Below, piece by piece: positions 44,310 to 52,923 of a stretch of 56,466 nucleotides of DNA. Source of the stretch: Promethearchaeota archaeon (GTDB taxonomy: Archaea > Asgardarchaeota > Lokiarchaeia > Sigyniarchaeales > SOKP01); assembly GCA_048941285.1 (NCBI GenBank), contig JBHLNS010000017.1:1-56466 (forward strand), read 5' to 3'. Below the pieces are notes generated by a model. That model did not search any database, had not been told where the DNA came from, and saw only the letters and a program-made list of their open reading frames with translations. A program made the translations under genes and the position numbers. Position 1 is the stretch's first letter, and each line of letters starts with the position of its first letter.

Positions 44310-44780
44310 TTATAACATACCCATAGAATCGGATCTAAATAATTCCTTTACTTCTTTGCCTAGCTCTGCTTGATCAGCTTGTAAATATCTATTCAAAATG
44401 ATAGTAATCTTTGGTGCCCATTTTTTCATAGTGGCTCTAATAAATCCGATCTGAGCATTTTTATCAGCTACAATACATAAAACTCCTTTTCCAACTTTCA
44501 TTGAAAAAATCATACCCTCAAGGTATTCTGTAATTTGTAGATCTATTGCCCCATAACCAAGGATGTGACCTTGCTCTTCTCCTGCAACAAAGACTGCCCC
44601 TCCTATAGCCCCAATCTTGTCAACAGAAATCCCATTTTCACCGGAAAACTTAAATTTAGCTTGACTTAGAATGGTTATTCCTGTATCATCAGTGATGAGT
44701 GCAAACTTTAATCCCGGCGTACTATTTATGATTAAAGTTAAAATTTTCTTTAATTTAAGCTCATCTTCGGAATAACTCAA
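44310..44780 (-). CDS. Roadblock/LC7 (LAMTOR-like) domain protein
   Basis: TPGLKFALITDDTGITI...GVLCIVADKNAQIGFIR pattern. Confidence 0.8.
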   Translation of the reverse strand: MSYSEDELKLKKILTLIINSTPGLKFALITDDTGITILSQAKFKFSGENGISVDKIGAIGGAVFVAGEEQGHILGYGAIDLQITEYLEGMIFSMKVGKGVLCIVADKNAQIGFIRATMKKWAPKITIILNRYLQADQAELGKEVKELFRSDSMGML

Positions 44781-45480: not shown

Positions 45481-46458
45481 TTATTTATTGTTTCTCTTTA
45501 ATGAAATCCCCAAGTTTAAATTTTCTACTAGTTCACTAAAACGATTTCTAACAGTTACTTCTGTCACACAGCTAATACGAGCAATCTTTCTTTGAGTTCT
45601 CCTTTCATTAGATAAAATACAGGAAGCGTAAATTGCAGCAGCACAAACACCCGTAGGTCCTCTACCAGAAGTTAAACCACGTTCTTCTGCCATTCTAATT
45701 ATTGTTTTTGCCGTTTTCTGGCACTTATTAGTTAACCCTAACTCTGAAATAAATCTTGTAAGAAAGTCTATCGGTTTAGTTGGATTTAATTCTAAAGATA
45801 ATTCATTAGATATAAATCTAAAGGATCTCCCAATTTCTTTCTTATCTACTCGTGCAACCTCGGCAATCTCATTTAAAGTGCGTGGAACTTTATACATTCT
45901 ACAAGCAGCATATAAACTGGCAGCAGCTACACCTTCAATACTTCTTCCGCGAATTAAATGAGCCTCAACTGCATCTCGATATATTTTAGCTGAACATTCT
46001 CTTAAATTTTTTTGAAGATCAAGATTAGAAGCCATACGATCAAGTTCACTTAAAGCAAATGTAAGGTTTCTCTCAGTTGCATCAGATACTCTTATGCGGC
46101 TTTGCCACTTTCTAAGTCTATATATTTGGCCTCTTAATTTAGCCGGGATTTCCTTTCCAAAAATATCCCTATTCTTCCAATCTATCATAGTACTAAGCCC
46201 TTTATCATGTATCATGTAAGTCATAGGAGCCCCTGTTCTTGTTCTCTTCTTTTTTTGGTCAGCGTCAAAAGCTCTCCATTCTGGTCCACGATCGATATGT
46301 TTTTCAGAATGCACTAAACCACATTCCTCACAGACCAATAATCCTCTATTCTCATCAAAAAATATATCTTTGCCACATTCATTACAAATATCAATATCTG
46401 TATTTGAGTCTTCCCCTAATACAGATTTCGGATCTCTCCAACTTGAAATACTATACAC
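45481..46458 (-). CDS. tfb: Transcription initiation factor IIB
   Basis: Zn ribbon CNEC...[26 protein letters not shown] and TEVTVRNRF motifs. Confidence 0.97.
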
Positions 46459-46915: not shown

Positions 46916-48013
46916 TCAAATATAATTTTTCTGTAACTGATATTTTTTTCTGCAATCACATTCATATATGTTCAGATCTATTTCATTTAAATTCTGTTTA
47001 AGTACAAAATTCTTAAGTCTATCTTTTGCAGAACTCTCGCATTCTTTCTTTAAACAATTATGAATTCCTCTTTTTGTTCCTGCTCCAGAAGGGGCCGATA
47101 ACAGGCGTATACTTTTCAAATCCTCCTGACTTATAGATTTCTTTATACATTTAAAAAGTGAATAATACCATGGCGGTCTATATCTATTCTGAAACCATAA
47201 GTATTCAGTAAGAGTTCCTCTTTGAATATTCGTTGGATTTATAGATATTGAATTCACACCTAATTCTATTAATTTTTTTATTGAATAAGAACAATCATCA
47301 ATTGCTGATTGTTCATTCAGAAAAGGTGGTTTAAATAACAAATACACTTTCACACCAATATCTTGTTCTTTGCATTTATCCAAAGTACTTTTAAAGTCTT
47401 TAAATAGAACTCCTTTGTTTATAAAATTATTCCTGATATAATCATCTACACTCTCAAGTCCAATAGCAATTTCAAGATATTTTTTATTAAATTGGGCTTT
47501 TATTTCTTCAAGCATTTCTGACCTAATAAATTCTAATCGTGATTCAATAACTATTTCTTTAATTTTTTCAACCTTTGAGACTTTCTCATAGATATGGTTT
47601 CGAATTTCTTTGGAAATCTCATTTTCATCTAAGAAACTTCCAGAATTGAAGATCTTAAGAATATAATTATTAGAATCTTGCTTTATTTCGTTTATTTTAT
47701 CATTAAATGCATAATCAAATTGACTAATAATATGAGAAGTCGAAATATCTTTATTAGTGGCATCTAGATAGTATCCACACATAGAACATCCTCCATGCTT
47801 GCTTAATGCCCAGTTGCATCCTTTAGTTCGCAATATAATTGTAAATTCTTTTCCAATTTCATTTCTAAGTCTTTCTTTCTTAGTCCAAAAACTAATCGGC
47901 CGATCCAATTGCTCTTCTCTATAATTAAGCTTTCTTTTTAGAGATTTTTGTTTAATAGAGTTAATTTGCGCAACTATCTTATTATCTTCACTATTCAAAT
48001 TTTGGTCATTCAT
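46916..48013 (-). CDS. Archaeosine biosynthesis radical SAM protein RaSEA
   Basis: ILRTKGCNW...GGCSMCGY, KIFNSGSFLD, YRPPW and RGIHNC motifs; overlaps arcS. Confidence 0.88.
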   Translation of the reverse strand: MNDQNLNSEDNKIVAQINSIKQKSLKRKLNYREEQLDRPISFWTKKERLRNEIGKEFTIILRTKGCNWALSKHGGCSMCGYYLDATNKDISTSHIISQFDYAFNDKINEIKQDSNNYILKIFNSGSFLDENEISKEIRNHIYEKVSKVEKIKEIVIESRLEFIRSEMLEEIKAQFNKKYLEIAIGLESVDDYIRNNFINKGVLFKDFKSTLDKCKEQDIGVKVYLLFKPPFLNEQSAIDDCSYSIKKLIELGVNSISINPTNIQRGTLTEYLWFQNRYRPPWYYSLFKCIKKSISQEDLKSIRLLSAPSGAGTKRGIHNCLKKECESSAKDRLKNFVLKQNLNEIDLNIYECDCRKKYQLQKNYI

Positions 48014-50081
48014 TAATTTTTACAATTCTCCCGCTTTTTGAATTTTTTAAAAAATTAGATCCCACAATTAATTCTCCACTTCCAAGAATTCTTTTCTTTG
48101 TTTTATCTAATATTACGACTTGATTATTTGGGATAAGATCTGAACTATAATCCAAAATTCCCGGTCTAAATAATGTATTTCCTAATAGTTTTTCTCCATC
48201 AAAAACAATGTAATTTCCTTTTTCTAAGTGATGAGAATGGACGAGTCTTTCAAGACCTACAATAGTTAATTCAATTTGACCCGTTGGAAATTTAAATATT
48301 CCCAATTTTTCTCGAGTTTTTAAGTCCTCTAACTCGATCTGATTTACATATCTGTTTTGAACGATTTTTAAACCATTAGAAATAATGTTATTACCTACGC
48401 CCTGCCCAAATTGATAATCTAAAATTTTGATAGATTTTCTTGTCCAAGTTTTAGAATAATTTTCGTAATTTAAACTGCTTTTCTTAGTCTTATAATTGTT
48501 CTTGTACTCAATGATTAATTTCTCTAAAGATTGGAGCGACTCATGTGATGTTACTTTATCAAAAATTTCAGAAAAAATGAACTTATGAGGTAAATCCGAA
48601 GCTGCCCTATTTATAATTTCAAGATATTCATTTTTTAAATGACAAATGATTGGTATATTTGGATCATATTTTTCGATTATTTTAATAAGCATATTTGATG
48701 ATATATTTATTTCTTCATTATCCCATTGACCAGTAACGGAAATATCATAAGAATTAACGGGGTAAATATTTTCTAATTGTCTAGGAATGCATCCTAAGGG
48801 TGAGGTCAAAATTATTTCTTGAAAAGCAGGAAAATCGGGAAACTTTCTAATTACATTATAAAATTTTTTATGAGATTTAGATTCTGAATATGGTTTTTTG
48901 GCTGAGCATGGGAGTAAAATTATTAAACTAGTCCAAGGTTCTGGTTCAAAATTATTAATGGTTCGTTCCCTATATTGTTCAAAATCTGGTCTATAATAAG
49001 ATGATGGCCCCAGGCACCTTATAATTTTACCTTTTTGTTTTATTGGAGTTTCATATTTAAAGATATTATAATATTCTTTATCCAAAGTCTTTAACATCGA
49101 AATTAAGTTAGTATCATCAAAACAAGACTTTTCTACAAATGCCCTAAAATCCTCAAATTTCAAAAACTGTTTGATTTTATTCATATAATTGTTTGCTGTA
49201 GTCAAATTGTGTAAACTCAATAAATCAATTTTTTCAGCAGAATATTTATCATCTAATATTTTAGTTAAATTACTTCTACATGCTGAACATGAACAAGGTA
49301 AATATTTTATTTTATATATCGGTAATAAATATTCTATTGTATCATAGAAATTTTCAGCAGATAAGAATAATAAGTAAGATGAATCAATCAGATCTATTCC
49401 TAGATATATTAATAATGGGTAATCTTTTGGAATTATTTTCCCAGAAGCCATTATTAATAAATTGTTATCCAATTCTGTTTTTATTTTGATAATGCTCTTT
49501 ATAATGTTTCTAAAGTTACTAAGATTATCAAACAACCCAGATAGATTTACAATTTTTATGTTTTCAAATTCTCGAAAAATTGGGATATAGAGATCTAACA
49601 ATTCCGCATAATCAAAAAGTCTCAAAGTTATGCCAAAATTTAAACTTGGATATTTTTTTAAAATATCTTGAATAGTAAAAAGATAATTTTTTATTTCTTT
49701 TAATGCAAATTCTTTGCTTATACTTGTTGTGGGGATATTAAACGGAATAAGCGATATAATATTATCTTTCGATAATACATTACTATTTTTCAATAATATT
49801 TCTTCGAATTTTCTTAATGTACCCGCATATGTAAAAATAAATCCATTGTTTCTAAATTTCTCTCTTATAAACCCTACTTTCAAGAAGAAATCCTTAGAAA
49901 TTGTAAATAACTCATGATTTTCAAACTCTTGAACAAAGTTAAATTGTTTCATTAAAGAGCTTTTTATTGGGATGATTATATTAGGAGTTTTGATATATAA
50001 TTTCCGTTCCTTTGAAAAAATGATACGCCCAATTCTTGAAAAACCAATCCTATTGTTTAAAATCTCAAAGAAATATTTCAT
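48006..50081 (-). CDS. arcS: Archaeosine synthase alpha subunit (TGT-like N-terminus, PCSxxKPY domain, PUA)
   Basis: LLPCSAKKPYSESKSH, TSPLG.IPRQLE, YDISVTGQWD and a C-terminal PUA domain. Confidence 0.88.
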   Translation of the reverse strand: MKYFFEILNNRIGFSRIGRIIFSKERKLYIKTPNIIIPIKSSLMKQFNFVQEFENHELFTISKDFFLKVGFIREKFRNNGFIFTYAGTLRKFEEILLKNSNVLSKDNIISLIPFNIPTTSISKEFALKEIKNYLFTIQDILKKYPSLNFGITLRLFDYAELLDLYIPIFREFENIKIVNLSGLFDNLSNFRNIIKSIIKIKTELDNNLLIMASGKIIPKDYPLLIYLGIDLIDSSYLLFLSAENFYDTIEYLLPIYKIKYLPCSCSACRSNLTKILDDKYSAEKIDLLSLHNLTTANNYMNKIKQFLKFEDFRAFVEKSCFDDTNLISMLKTLDKEYYNIFKYETPIKQKGKIIRCLGPSSYYRPDFEQYRERTINNFEPEPWTSLIILLPCSAKKPYSESKSHKKFYNVIRKFPDFPAFQEIILTSPLGCIPRQLENIYPVNSYDISVTGQWDNEEINISSNMLIKIIEKYDPNIPIICHLKNEYLEIINRAASDLPHKFIFSEIFDKVTSHESLQSLEKLIIEYKNNYKTKKSSLNYENYSKTWTRKSIKILDYQFGQGVGNNIISNGLKIVQNRYVNQIELEDLKTREKLGIFKFPTGQIELTIVGLERLVHSHHLEKGNYIVFDGEKLLGNTLFRPGILDYSSDLIPNNQVVILDKTKKRILGSGELIVGSNFLKNSKSGRIVKINE

Positions 50082-50234: not shown

Positions 50235-51518
50235 TTAAAAAATTTTGAAATTAACATCTGGCTTTAGCTCATCTAATACAAAATTCGTAAACGTATCTTC
50301 AATTTCTTCTGAAATATACAAATCTCTTAAAAAGGTTGCATAATCTTCAATTTCCTTTACTCTTACGATTGCAAATAGTCCATATTGCTCACCTATTCGA
50401 AATAAATCTGTGATATTTTTATTTTTATCCAATTTTAAGGCAAGTTCATTATATTTTGACGGATCCTTAGGTTTTATTCTAACAAAATACTTTCCATTGA
50501 AACCGATTTTTTTTGGATAAAAATTTATGGTATAATTTAATATAACTCGTTTTATTTCAAGTTTTTTTATTCTGTTATGAATAGTCGATTGAGAAATGTC
50601 TGTATTGTATTTTTCCTTTAAAATTTTCTTTATCTTATAAGTAGATATGGGTTTTAGACCTTGATTATCTCGTAATATAGTTAAAATTGTGAAATCAATA
50701 TTATCTATTTCAAAATGAGGATCAAATTGTTGTTTATCTAATGTTATATCAATTTTTCTTATACTTTTGATTATTTTTTTTTTTATTATATCTATTTTTG
50801 AAACATTATTAAGACCATTTATCACTATTTTTCCATTTGAGAAAACTAAAATTGTTACAGGAGAATTTTCAATTTTTAATACTAAACCTGGAAATCTCTC
50901 AGGGTTGTATTCAATATCCCAATTATTTCGAGCGATTTGCCTTATGTCGATTTTTGTAGGTAATTCAATTTCTATATTCTCATTTATATGCTCTTTTTTT
51001 TCTACTATAGTATCCAATAACTGCAAAATTTCCTCTTCTAAAGGCATTATTGATTTTCCTAAACTAATTCCATTTGTCTTAAACACCTTAATAGTCTCAA
51101 TGATTTGATATTTTTTAAAATATGACTTTGCCATTATAGTATCTATAGTATTTAATATTTGATAGTATTCCTGAGGAGATTTGAAGAGAAATAAGGCAAA
51201 TAAAGAAAAATCTCCTATTATTCCATCCAACATTCTTAATTGAGGTATTTCCAACAATCTTTTGACTAACTCAGGTTCTTTTGGGTTAGTCTTGATTTCA
51301 AGCATCACAAATTTCAAATTATTGGGCTGAATATTTGGATTAATATTAATTGTGAAATTTGTAATTATTTTTTGATCTCTCAAACCATCAAGTTTATTTT
51401 GATATGTTTGTCTAGAAAGTCCAATTGCACCGGAATTTTTTGAAATGATAAATTTGGTTTTTCCGCTTAAATTTTTGATGAATTGTTGTACTTCATACTC
51501 ATCATTTATTCTACTCAT
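50235..51518 (-). CDS. Tandem Lrp/AsnC-type regulator with an inserted TBP-like domain
   Basis: Lrp repeat 1 (about aa 1-150), TBP repeat (about aa 180-258, EYNPERFPGLVLKI...LVFSNGKIVING) and Lrp repeat 2 (about aa 270-427). Confidence 0.82.
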   Translation of the reverse strand: MSRINDEYEVQQFIKNLSGKTKFIISKNSGAIGLSRQTYQNKLDGLRDQKIITNFTININPNIQPNNLKFVMLEIKTNPKEPELVKRLLEIPQLRMLDGIIGDFSLFALFLFKSPQEYYQILNTIDTIMAKSYFKKYQIIETIKVFKTNGISLGKSIMPLEEEILQLLDTIVEKKEHINENIEIELPTKIDIRQIARNNWDIEYNPERFPGLVLKIENSPVTILVFSNGKIVINGLNNVSKIDIIKKKIIKSIRKIDITLDKQQFDPHFEIDNIDFTILTILRDNQGLKPISTYKIKKILKEKYNTDISQSTIHNRIKKLEIKRVILNYTINFYPKKIGFNGKYFVRIKPKDPSKYNELALKLDKNKNITDLFRIGEQYGLFAIVRVKEIEDYATFLRDLYISEEIEDTFTNFVLDELKPDVNFKIF

Positions 51519-51645
51519 AATATTACACTTTTACAAATTTTTGATTCACTATTAATTAAATGTTAAATTATATATTTAAATATTTGCATTTAACCAAAAA
51601 AAGATTTATAAATTAATTAAAATTAATATTCTTACAAAAAAGAAA

Positions 51646-52923
51646 GTGATTTGTATGGTAAATTATAAGGTAGCAGATGAAAATTTAGCCAATCAAGGAA
51701 AAGAAGCACTTTATATTGCTGAAAGTAAAATGCCAGTCACAGCAGAAATAATTCGAGAACGATTTTCTAATGAAAAGCCCTTAGAGGGAATCACTATTGC
51801 AGGTTGTTTACATGTAACAAAAGAAACTGGTAATTTAGCTCGAACTCTTAAAGCGGGGGGTGCAGAAGTATATCTTTGTGGAAGCAATCCATTATCGACT
51901 CAGGATGATGTAGCAGCCGCTTTAGTAAAGGAAGGAATAAACGTTTTTGCGTGGCACGGTAATACAGATGAGGAATTTTATTGGTGTATAAGACAATGCC
52001 TAAATGCTAAACCGAATATTTTAATTGACGATGGTGCTGATATGATTGTAACCGCACATCAAGAATATCAAGAACTAATTAATTCAGGAACTATCATCGC
52101 ATGTCAAGAAGAAACCACAACTGGCGTCAAAAGATTTAAAGCGATGGATAAAAAAGGAGTTTTGAAAGTACCACTCTTTCCAGTTAATGATGCTCGTTGT
52201 AAAAATCAATTTGATAATGAATTAGGAACTGGACAAGGAATTATTGCGGCGATTTATGGAATGCACGTATTATTTGCAGGGAAAAATGTTATTGTGGCAG
52301 GATTCGGTCATTGCAGTAGCGGGATGGCATTGAGAGCACGTGGTTTGGGTGCAAACGTAATCGTTACTGAGATTGATCCGATTAAAGCACTCCAAGCTAA
52401 ATTTGCTGGTTATCAAGTTATGCCTATTTCAGAGGCTTTACCCATCGCAGATATTATTTTAACTGCGACGGGATGCAAACATGTGATATTACCTACAAAA
52501 GAAAATTTTGATGCTCTTAAAGATGGAGTCATTTTAGGTAATCTAGGACATTTTGACATTGAGATTCCAACTAAGGAAATTTATGAATACGCTAAAGAAA
52601 TCAAGCCAATAAGAAATAACGTCGAGGAAATCATTTTTCCTGATGATAAAAGAACCTATTTACTTGCTAAGGGAAGACTTGCTAATCTAGTGCTTTCAGA
52701 AGGACACCCTGCTGAAGTAATGGATATGTCTTTTGGTTTACAGTCATTAATGTCCGAGTATATTGTTAAAAATAAAGAAAAATTAAGACCAGGAATGATT
52801 GATATTCCCAGTGAAATTGATGACGAGGTTGGTTTCTTAAAACTCCAGTCCTTAGGCGTTGAGATTGACAAGCTTACGGATGAACAATACAAATATATCC
52901 ATGGCTACGAAGAGGGAACATAA
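51646..52923 (+). CDS. ahcY: Adenosylhomocysteinase (start possibly ATG 51655)
   Basis: CLHVTKET, SNPLSTQDDVAAAL, DDGAD, EETTTG and GHPAEVMDMSF motifs. Confidence 0.93.
   Translation: MICMVNYKVADENLANQGKEALYIAESKMPVTAEIIRERFSNEKPLEGITIAGCLHVTKETGNLARTLKAGGAEVYLCGSNPLSTQDDVAAALVKEGINVFAWHGNTDEEFYWCIRQCLNAKPNILIDDGADMIVTAHQEYQELINSGTIIACQEETTTGVKRFKAMDKKGVLKVPLFPVNDARCKNQFDNELGTGQGIIAAIYGMHVLFAGKNVIVAGFGHCSSGMALRARGLGANVIVTEIDPIKALQAKFAGYQVMPISEALPIADIILTATGCKHVILPTKENFDALKDGVILGNLGHFDIEIPTKEIYEYAKEIKPIRNNVEEIIFPDDKRTYLLAKGRLANLVLSEGHPAEVMDMSFGLQSLMSEYIVKNKEKLRPGMIDIPSEIDDEVGFLKLQSLGVEIDKLTDEQYKYIHGYEEGT

Follow-up and report, generated by a model that had tools for sequence, protein, structure and literature searches.

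A TBP lobe set between the two units of a tandem Lrp/AsnC regulator

The window, a stretch of 56,466 nucleotides (positions 1 to 56,466 of contig JBHLNS010000017.1, Promethearchaeota assembly GCA_048941285.1), encodes on its reverse strand a protein in which a single TATA-binding protein (TBP) repeat lies between two units of the Lrp/AsnC regulator type. The gene (50235..51518, minus strand) has an ATG start and encodes 427 residues plus a stop codon. An earlier note made from the nucleotide letters had drawn attention to this gene; its reading frame is open, the peptide quoted in that note is present letter for letter, residues 180-258 correspond to nucleotides 50745-50981 as was claimed, and the two phenylalanines singled out there are found at residues 209 and 226. 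From its N terminus the protein comprises (all on the minus strand): (i) a divergent Lrp-like unit of a predicted winged helix-turn-helix (wHTH) and a RAM-like domain (residues 1-152, 51063..51518); (ii) a linker with a predicted helix, which belongs to the insert according to the structural model and the alignment (residues 157-181, 50976..51050); (iii) the TBP repeat, with a short first strand (S1), helix H1, strand S2, the stirrup, strands S3, S4, and S5, and helix H2 (residues 182-256, 50751..50975, delimited by PF00352 and by fold); (iv) a post-insert linker, defined by alignment with insert-free orthologues and of low predicted local distance difference test score (pLDDT) at residues 261-268 (residues 257-270, 50709..50750); and (v) a C-terminal Lrp/AsnC unit of a predicted wHTH and a RAM domain, recognized by PF01037 and by matches to sequences in the PDB (residues 271-427, 50238..50708).

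The protein is a single-chain tandem Lrp/AsnC regulator, each polypeptide having two units of a predicted wHTH plus RAM. Its assignment to the Lrp/AsnC family is carried by the C-terminal unit, and its insert falls within the TBP domain family. The whole protein matched PF01037 at 42.9 bits and the C-terminal unit alone at 30.2 bits, both over the cut-off of 25, while the N-terminal unit alone scored 17.2 bits; this latter unit was recognized by its alignment to the C-terminal unit (BLASTP E-value 2e-6, 30% identity over 90 residues). The claim that the repeat sits in frame between two Lrp units was upheld, with the C-terminal unit identified by profile and the N-terminal unit by this alignment. 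Residues 270-419 were matched to FL11/PH1519 by phmmer among the PDB sequences (E-value 7.5e-11). The profiles for the wHTH itself remained below threshold (HTH_AsnC 15.2-17.4 bits, cut-off 27; HTH_24 18.8 bits, cut-off 21.9); a three-helix pattern was found in the model, and the alignment to PH1519 is full-length with its HTH included. In the full-length model the N-terminal unit displayed the helix and strand order of a wHTH plus a RAM-like domain, and the linker helix was placed at residues 160-173; the overall scores (pLDDT 63.5, predicted template modeling score [pTM] 0.34) render the domain arrangement, including the placement of the lobe relative to the wHTH units, unreliable. The helix-bearing linker varies: between 21 and 40 of the 94 proteins compared are gapped there, a short-linker subgroup does without it, and it is missing from the orthologues of 318 residues.

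The insert is a genuine single TBP lobe. Residues 184-255 matched Pfam PF00352 at 63.4 bits (gathering score 22.9, E-value 1.8e-17) over positions 11-84 of the 85 in the profile, the NCBIfam TBP models covered the same stretch, and archaeal TBPs among the PDB sequences were matched by phmmer, with the TBP of Sulfolobus (1mp9) at the top (E-value 2.6e-20). The single TBP repeat announced in the earlier note was confirmed by the profile score. Its degenerate first strand was confirmed too: the match enters the profile only at position 11, and the first half of S1 is mostly lost. A model of residues 176-264 alone, based on an alignment of 23 rows, reached a pLDDT of 75.1 and a pTM of 0.63, and the secondary structure assigned by DSSP was E-H-E-E-E-E-H in both the lobe-only and the full-length models. 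One strand, a helix, four strands, and a second helix is the order of one TBP lobe. When the lobe model was searched by Foldseek, ranks 1-44 were all TBP chains (TM-score 0.60-0.71, root mean square deviation [rmsd] 2.7-3.6 Å), including 1mp9 at a TM-score of 0.71 and an rmsd of 2.7 Å, and RNase HIII appeared as a remote fold match far below the TBP chains (E-value 0.13, TM-score 0.41). The regulator is nonetheless not a TBP, as it has one lobe and an incomplete S1; one PF00352 stretch was detected in its 427 residues and two in each of the genome's canonical TBPs (contigs C94 and C35).

Residue conservation was scored across 94 full-length insert-bearing proteins, each representing a distinct cluster. 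F209 and G229 were invariant (94/94), and L192, I195, Y204, P206, P210, G211, and G257 were conserved in at least 90%. The stirrup was the best-conserved part of the lobe (Y204 in 85, P206 in 88, F209 in 94, P210 in 93, and G211 in 90 of the 94). The sheet face, taken here as the positions that touch DNA in TBP-TATA crystal structures, with F209 and F226 at the places of the DNA-kinking phenylalanines, was largely kept: K/R208 in 91/94, K/R215 in 77/94, F226 in 81/94, K/R230 in 86/94, and V/I232 in 83/94. Both phenylalanines are present in the regulator itself. The stirrup is of the N-type and reads NPE[KR]F, where the C-lobe stirrup in the TBP of this genome reads EPEVF; the helix surfaces of the lobe are variable among the family members. 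At residue 257 (50748-50750), just past H2, the copy in this genome has aspartate where 93 of the 94 have glycine.

The fusion is real and conserved. Among 8000 scored candidates, 485 homologues were found at an E-value ≤ 0.001; of the best 120, 95 are proteins of 393-443 residues that combine PF01037 with PF00352, and the other 25 are proteins of 318-324 residues without PF00352. These homologues derive from four source collections (NCBI, JGI, ENA, and Logan records) and are labeled as Lokiarchaeia, Promethearchaeota, and other Asgard metagenome-assembled genomes. The same architecture was found at the same locus in 16 other genomes. Both junctions (nucleotides 50709-51050) are bridged by a contig of 755 nucleotides from run X1, possibly the source sample, that spans 50378-51132 with 0 differences, as well as by a contig of 802 nucleotides from a run of another study (X2) that spans 50336-51137 with 15 differences. 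The earlier note had named read support across the junctions as a check against a chimeric assembly, and contigs from two studies cross both of them with no sign of a chimera. An assembly chimera or a frame artifact as the source of the fusion can practically be dismissed in view of the shared architecture across the four collections, the 16 further genomes, and these two contigs. A joint from 50254 to 50765 on one X1 contig was treated as spurious, since its shorter side is only 21 letters long. No RNA run was among the 20 runs listed for the locus, a result that says nothing either way about expression.

Host gene, locus, and origin of the insert

The distribution of the host gene was surveyed in 301 genomes of the phylum, with the gene called at an E-value ≤ 1e-30. 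It was detected in this genome and in 64 of the 68 other genomes of its Lokiarchaeia-type family, and at this threshold in 0 of the 232 genomes of 29 other families of the phylum. Whether orthologues share the insert, a check raised in the earlier note, has a divided answer: 17 of the 65 gene-bearing genomes have the insert and the others lack it. By genus, it was found in 8 of 22 genomes of the genus of the window and in 9 of 25 (with a match) of a second genus; among genomes with the gene it occurred in none of seven other genera. The forms of 318 residues align end to end with those of 427 residues, minus exactly the linker, lobe, and linker, and their two units are joined by only about 8 residues. 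No insert-free paralogue of 318 residues was found in this genome.

The surroundings of the gene are shared by both forms. The divergent neighbor is ahcY, encoding S-adenosyl-L-homocysteine hydrolase (51646..52923, plus strand; PF05221 E-value 5e-62, PF00670 E-value 2e-41), which we consider a likely target of the regulator. In each of 29 related loci (29 of 29) it lay next to the regulator in divergent orientation. Directly downstream of the regulator is an ArcS-type gene with TGT and DUF5591 domain matches (48006..50081, minus strand), which was found in 28 of the 29 loci, with the contig ending first in the 29th. This shared synteny of ahcY and the ArcS-type gene identifies the insert-bearing and insert-free genes as positional orthologues. 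Of the neighbors that had been named in the earlier note, ahcY was verified by its AdoHcyase domains, and the ArcS-type, Gar1, and TFIIB-repeat (TFB, 45481-46458) genes were found downstream of the regulator on its strand; the radical-SAM gene that had been placed among them was recovered only as a weak match (27.1 bits, cut-off 29.5). The GTG start of ahcY (51646-51657) may be too early, as most related loci align from residue 4, which is ATG here. Farther along the window, an open reading frame of 156 residues (44310-44780, minus strand) has a subthreshold match to the Roadblock/LC7-like family MAPKK1_Int (23.5 bits, cut-off 25).

The regulator and ahcY share a divergent, AT-rich promoter region of 127 bp (51519..51645), which is strongly conserved in 30 loci. 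Across these loci the intergenic region measures 113-140 bp and contains two conserved blocks (80% or more) that hold TTAATTAA and the TTTAACCAAAAA...TTTA element; the TATA-like elements of the region are TTAATTAA and TTTATAAAT. The conserved blocks are likely to represent an operator together with a pair of divergent core promoters. An inverted-repeat search of the intergenic region returned overlapping AT-rich palindromes only, and no operator sequence is proposed.

Of six reference repeats, the N-lobe of the canonical TBP in this genome (contig C94) was the nearest to the insert, with 37-62% identity overall and 49% for the copy in the window; this N-lobe scored strictly above the other five for 25 of the 27 inserts and shared the top place for the remaining 2. 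This comparison shows the insert to be a copy of the N-terminal TBP lobe encoded by the organism itself, set into the linker between the first RAM domain and the second wHTH. In describing a regulator with a half-TBP of its own, the earlier note is therefore anatomically right, the half being a copy of the N-lobe and not of the C-lobe. To follow the history of the insert, a tree was built from 64 genes after the columns of the insert had been taken out of the alignment; the gene of genome G099, which is split over two contigs, was left out. All 17 insert-bearing genes fell into one clade of 20 (Shimodaira-Hasegawa-like approximate likelihood ratio test 99); the other three genes, which lie within this clade, have no insert. 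The presence of the insert requires a minimum of 3 changes on this tree, a number as low as which was reached in 0 of 500 label shuffles. A single clade of the 17 was not rejected by the approximately unbiased (AU) test (p 0.11, log-likelihood difference 33), for a group that was named after the tree had been seen; a single gain of the insert is thus well supported, and its secondary loss appears likely from the tree and is not established by this test. The genera themselves are scattered over the 64-gene tree (loci L014-L077), with 16 label changes for 9 genera, and both large genera hold insert-bearing genes together with distant insert-free gene types. This scatter suggests that alleles were exchanged or sorted inside the family, or that the tree is weakly resolved.

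Other TBP-domain genes were also observed. A search with the insert region alone, which was word-limited and is silent on other architectures, returned the same family only (20 proteins). The canonical TBP (L001 on contig C94; L078-L092) has a long Asp/Glu-rich N-terminal extension in 16 of the 16 genomes compared, and a second two-lobed paralogue (contig C35, a frame of 200 residues) is 31-44% identical to it, lobe by lobe. A stand-alone TBP repeat of 88 residues with a complete S1 (L005:1495-1761, minus strand, equal to contig C1:108588-108851 of genome G000; PF00352 E-value 3.3e-21) adjoins two small zinc-ribbon-like open reading frames; it was considered as a conserved partner and set aside, with no match above 48% identity in 80 other genomes of the family, and looks specific to this genome. 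A further TBP repeat is located N-terminal to a Ras-family small GTPase in a gene that runs off the contig end (L004:3-725, minus strand, contig C29 of G000; PF00352 E-value 1.8e-20, PF00071 E-value 1.2e-28), with relatives in 3 of the 80 other genomes as open frames of 451-515 residues.

Candidate roles of the inserted lobe

We tentatively favor a role of the lobe as an accessory contact to promoter DNA. According to this proposal, the Lrp units would bind the conserved AT-rich stretch that separates the regulator gene from ahcY, and the regulator would control ahcY and/or its own operon. Since the linker of the insert-free forms is so short, the insert would lie close to the N terminus of the second wHTH, near the DNA-binding side. 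Tethered by this wHTH, the lobe could serve as an accessory half-saddle that lays its sheet face on nearby AT-rich minor groove, where the contact might add affinity or a local kink or cover one of the two TATA-like elements; it would tune the regulator and not replace TBP. The module is optional: it is missing from positional orthologues whose promoter is nearly the same. The PF00352 match, the lobe fold, the mostly kept sheet face, and the ratios of nonsynonymous to synonymous substitution (dN/dS) are in favor of this proposal. There is also precedent for it, in that single TBP-like domains are found stand-alone or as the N-domain of RNase HIII, according to PMC3597702, and this N-domain is a substrate-binding domain, as described in PMC4132731.

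Several observations weigh against an accessory DNA contact. The best-kept positions (Y204, P206, F209, P210, G211, and G229) are also fold-determining, so their conservation does not single out DNA binding; the S5 threonine is kept in 35/94 only, and F226 is replaced in 13/94. The first half of S1, a source of central base contacts in TBP, is lost: its positions are a gap in 21-40/94 and retain any parental residue in ≤15/94, with the asparagine of the parent in 15/94 and its two valines in 1/94 and 0/94. The lobe also diverges rapidly. Its mean identity is 50% across 17 genomes (136 pairs), far below the 95.6% of the parental N-lobe across 16 insert-bearing genomes (120 pairs); the mean divergence of 50% versus 4.4% corresponds to a rate about ten times faster. 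Furthermore, by the method of Nei and Gojobori on 12 pairs, dN/dS was 0.15-0.44 for the TBP core, 0.04-0.16 for the N-terminal Lrp unit, and 0.07-0.18 for the C-terminal Lrp unit, such that the core is 2-5 times more relaxed than its flanks.

These same data bear on the possibility that the lobe is a near-dispensable passenger, a tolerated linker domain kept mainly since its misfolding would harm the essential Lrp scaffold. Consistent with a passenger are the presence of the insert in only 17 of the 65 gene-bearing genomes, the nesting of insert-free genes with near-identical promoters among the insert-bearing genes in the best tree, the fast evolution of the lobe compared with its flanks (mean identity 0.50 versus 0.77-0.82 among the 17 insert-bearing genes, with the N-terminal unit at 0.82), and the aspartate that replaces a nearly universal glycine in this genome's copy. 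Constraint on the lobe argues otherwise, as dN/dS is well under 1 in 12 of 12 pairs, F209 and G229 are invariant, and the module is kept in two groups at genus level and in 94 different clusters of full-length proteins; moreover, the AU test establishes no secondary loss. By the substitution ratios, the lobe is under purifying selection, though much less constrained than the scaffold or the parent, and we regard a mere passenger as unlikely.

The pattern of conservation in the stirrup brings in another possibility, that the lobe contacts protein and not DNA, with the stirrup or the helices binding TFB, TBP, RNA polymerase, or the RAM surface of the regulator itself. Such a module would recruit, sequester, or auto-inhibit, in effect making the contact between Ptr2 and TBP intramolecular. 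That the stirrup is the best-conserved part of the lobe, led by F209 and P210, fits this idea, and the N-terminal stirrup of methanococcal TBP can reportedly also assemble TFB (Ouhammouch et al., 2009). In TBP the C-lobe, through its stirrup, makes the main TFB contact, and the stirrup of the insert is N-type and not the EPEVF of the C-lobe. In addition, the helix surfaces are variable, and folding alone would conserve the stirrup. In support of such a module, Ptr2-like archaeal Lrp activators touch TBP directly with residues of the RAM surface involved, as stated in PMC2995911, and the statement in the earlier note that Ptr2 works by recruiting TBP accordingly has a source in print. On balance, a protein-contact module is rather improbable, if a little less so than a passenger.

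The most far-reaching alternative is that the lobes of two chains in an Lrp oligomer pair to rebuild a saddle, which would bind a TATA box and nucleate or block the pre-initiation complex. Lrp proteins oligomerize, which could bring two lobes together; both phenylalanine positions are mostly kept; and the promoter region offers the TATA-like elements TTAATTAA and TTTATAAAT. However, the missing first half of S1 in TBP forms the center of the saddle, at the seam of its two lobes, and makes the central Asn/Val base contacts. A pair of N-type lobes would also have no C-type stirrup, and the lobe can be missing where the promoter is unchanged. A homodimer prediction for two copies of residues 176-262 (alignment of 87 rows) gave a score of 0.01 and a mark of 0.42; the lobe fold was uncertain in one run, so this prediction was counted neither for nor against pairing. 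A rebuilt saddle is very unlikely, and slightly more so in its specific form, in which two tethered N-type lobes would pair on the ahcY/regulator promoter, substitute for TBP or compete with it, and nucleate or veto the pre-initiation complex. If this were true, the archaeal lineage closest to eukaryotes would hold a naturally occurring step between general transcription factors and gene-specific ones.

In terms of the roles suggested in the earlier note, the rebuilding of a saddle by dimers and the recruitment of TFB are the less likely readings, and touching or blocking AT-rich promoter DNA survives as a candidate. The inserted half is probably an accessory part and not a private TBP. TBP is the universal platform of archaeal and eukaryotic transcription initiation, and the Lrp proteins are the best-studied gene-specific regulators of archaea; a fusion of the two bears on what a single lobe is capable of, on the reuse of general machinery for gene-specific control, and on how regulator architectures arise by the capture of host domains. 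The natural insert-free orthologues at the same locus provide a built-in control, and the likely target ahcY ties the system to the methyl cycle of S-adenosylmethionine and S-adenosylhomocysteine. The scope of these implications is bounded, as the lobe is optional, the protein family is confined to one uncultured Asgard family in the genomes searched, and the roles are proposed from sequence.

Comparison with known systems

The predicted wHTH plus RAM unit is alike in sequence and fold to that of Lrp/AsnC proteins of known structure (FL11/PH1519, 2cyy, 1ri7, and 2e1c; LrpA, 1i1g; and AsnC of Escherichia coli, 2cg4), and the archaeal activators Ptr2, LysM, and Ss-LrpB are named as relatives. 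Like Lrp regulators, the gene adjoins a divergent metabolic gene with a conserved AT-rich control region. Unlike the known Lrp/AsnC proteins, it has two units fused in one chain, the N-terminal one under the Pfam cut-off, and a TBP lobe in the linker; and whereas Ptr2 recruits free TBP, here a TBP lobe is built into the regulator. The words "tandem," "fused," and "fusion" do not occur in the available part of the review of archaeal Lrp proteins (PMC2995911). Two Lrp-like units per chain are also found in the siroheme decarboxylase NirDL/AhbAB (4czc), which was ranked 10 by Foldseek for the full model; that enzyme differs in its low identity (10%) and an rmsd of 28 Å, and the best sequence matches of the regulator are DNA-binding Lrp proteins. 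No NirD-type family was among the 5 Pfam (E-value up to 10) or 18 NCBIfam families listed for the protein.

No paper on an Lrp-TBP fusion was found by literature search, and the supplements of Asgard comparative genomics, which lie outside such a search, could list the architecture. PMC7221094 has no occurrence of Lrp, AsnC, or Asgard, and PMC11188069 was set aside because its mentions of TBP domains concern adaptin-like domains. Thus, the Lrp-TBP fusion is apparently undescribed in the searchable literature, and reusable single TBP domains are already in print. Brindefalk et al. (2013, PMC3597702), in the portion of the article that is available, describe monopartite TBP-domain proteins, including those of Thermococcales (91-96 residues) and the halobacterial TbpA, and further contexts in RNase HIII and DNA glycosylases, from which a TBP domain is seen to work alone and to be recruited into other proteins; neither Lrp nor AsnC is mentioned in that portion. 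The monopartite proteins are defined there as stand-alone and of 150 residues or less, and the present lobe lies inside 427 residues.

Overall, the regulator is a lineage-specific variant of a known family, which arose by the capture of one half of the TBP of its host. Compared with the N-lobe of archaeal TBPs (the genome's own TBP on contig C94; 1mp9, 2z8u, and 1pcz/1ais), the insert belongs to the same Pfam family and has the same fold and stirrup motif; it differs from an archaeal TBP in being one lobe, in the loss of the first half of S1, in having no C-type stirrup, and in evolving about ten times faster. With the monopartite proteins it shares the use of a single TBP domain outside TBP, and it departs from the stand-alone proteins and enzyme fusions of PMC3597702 as a lobe recently copied from the TBP of its host into a 427-residue regulator.

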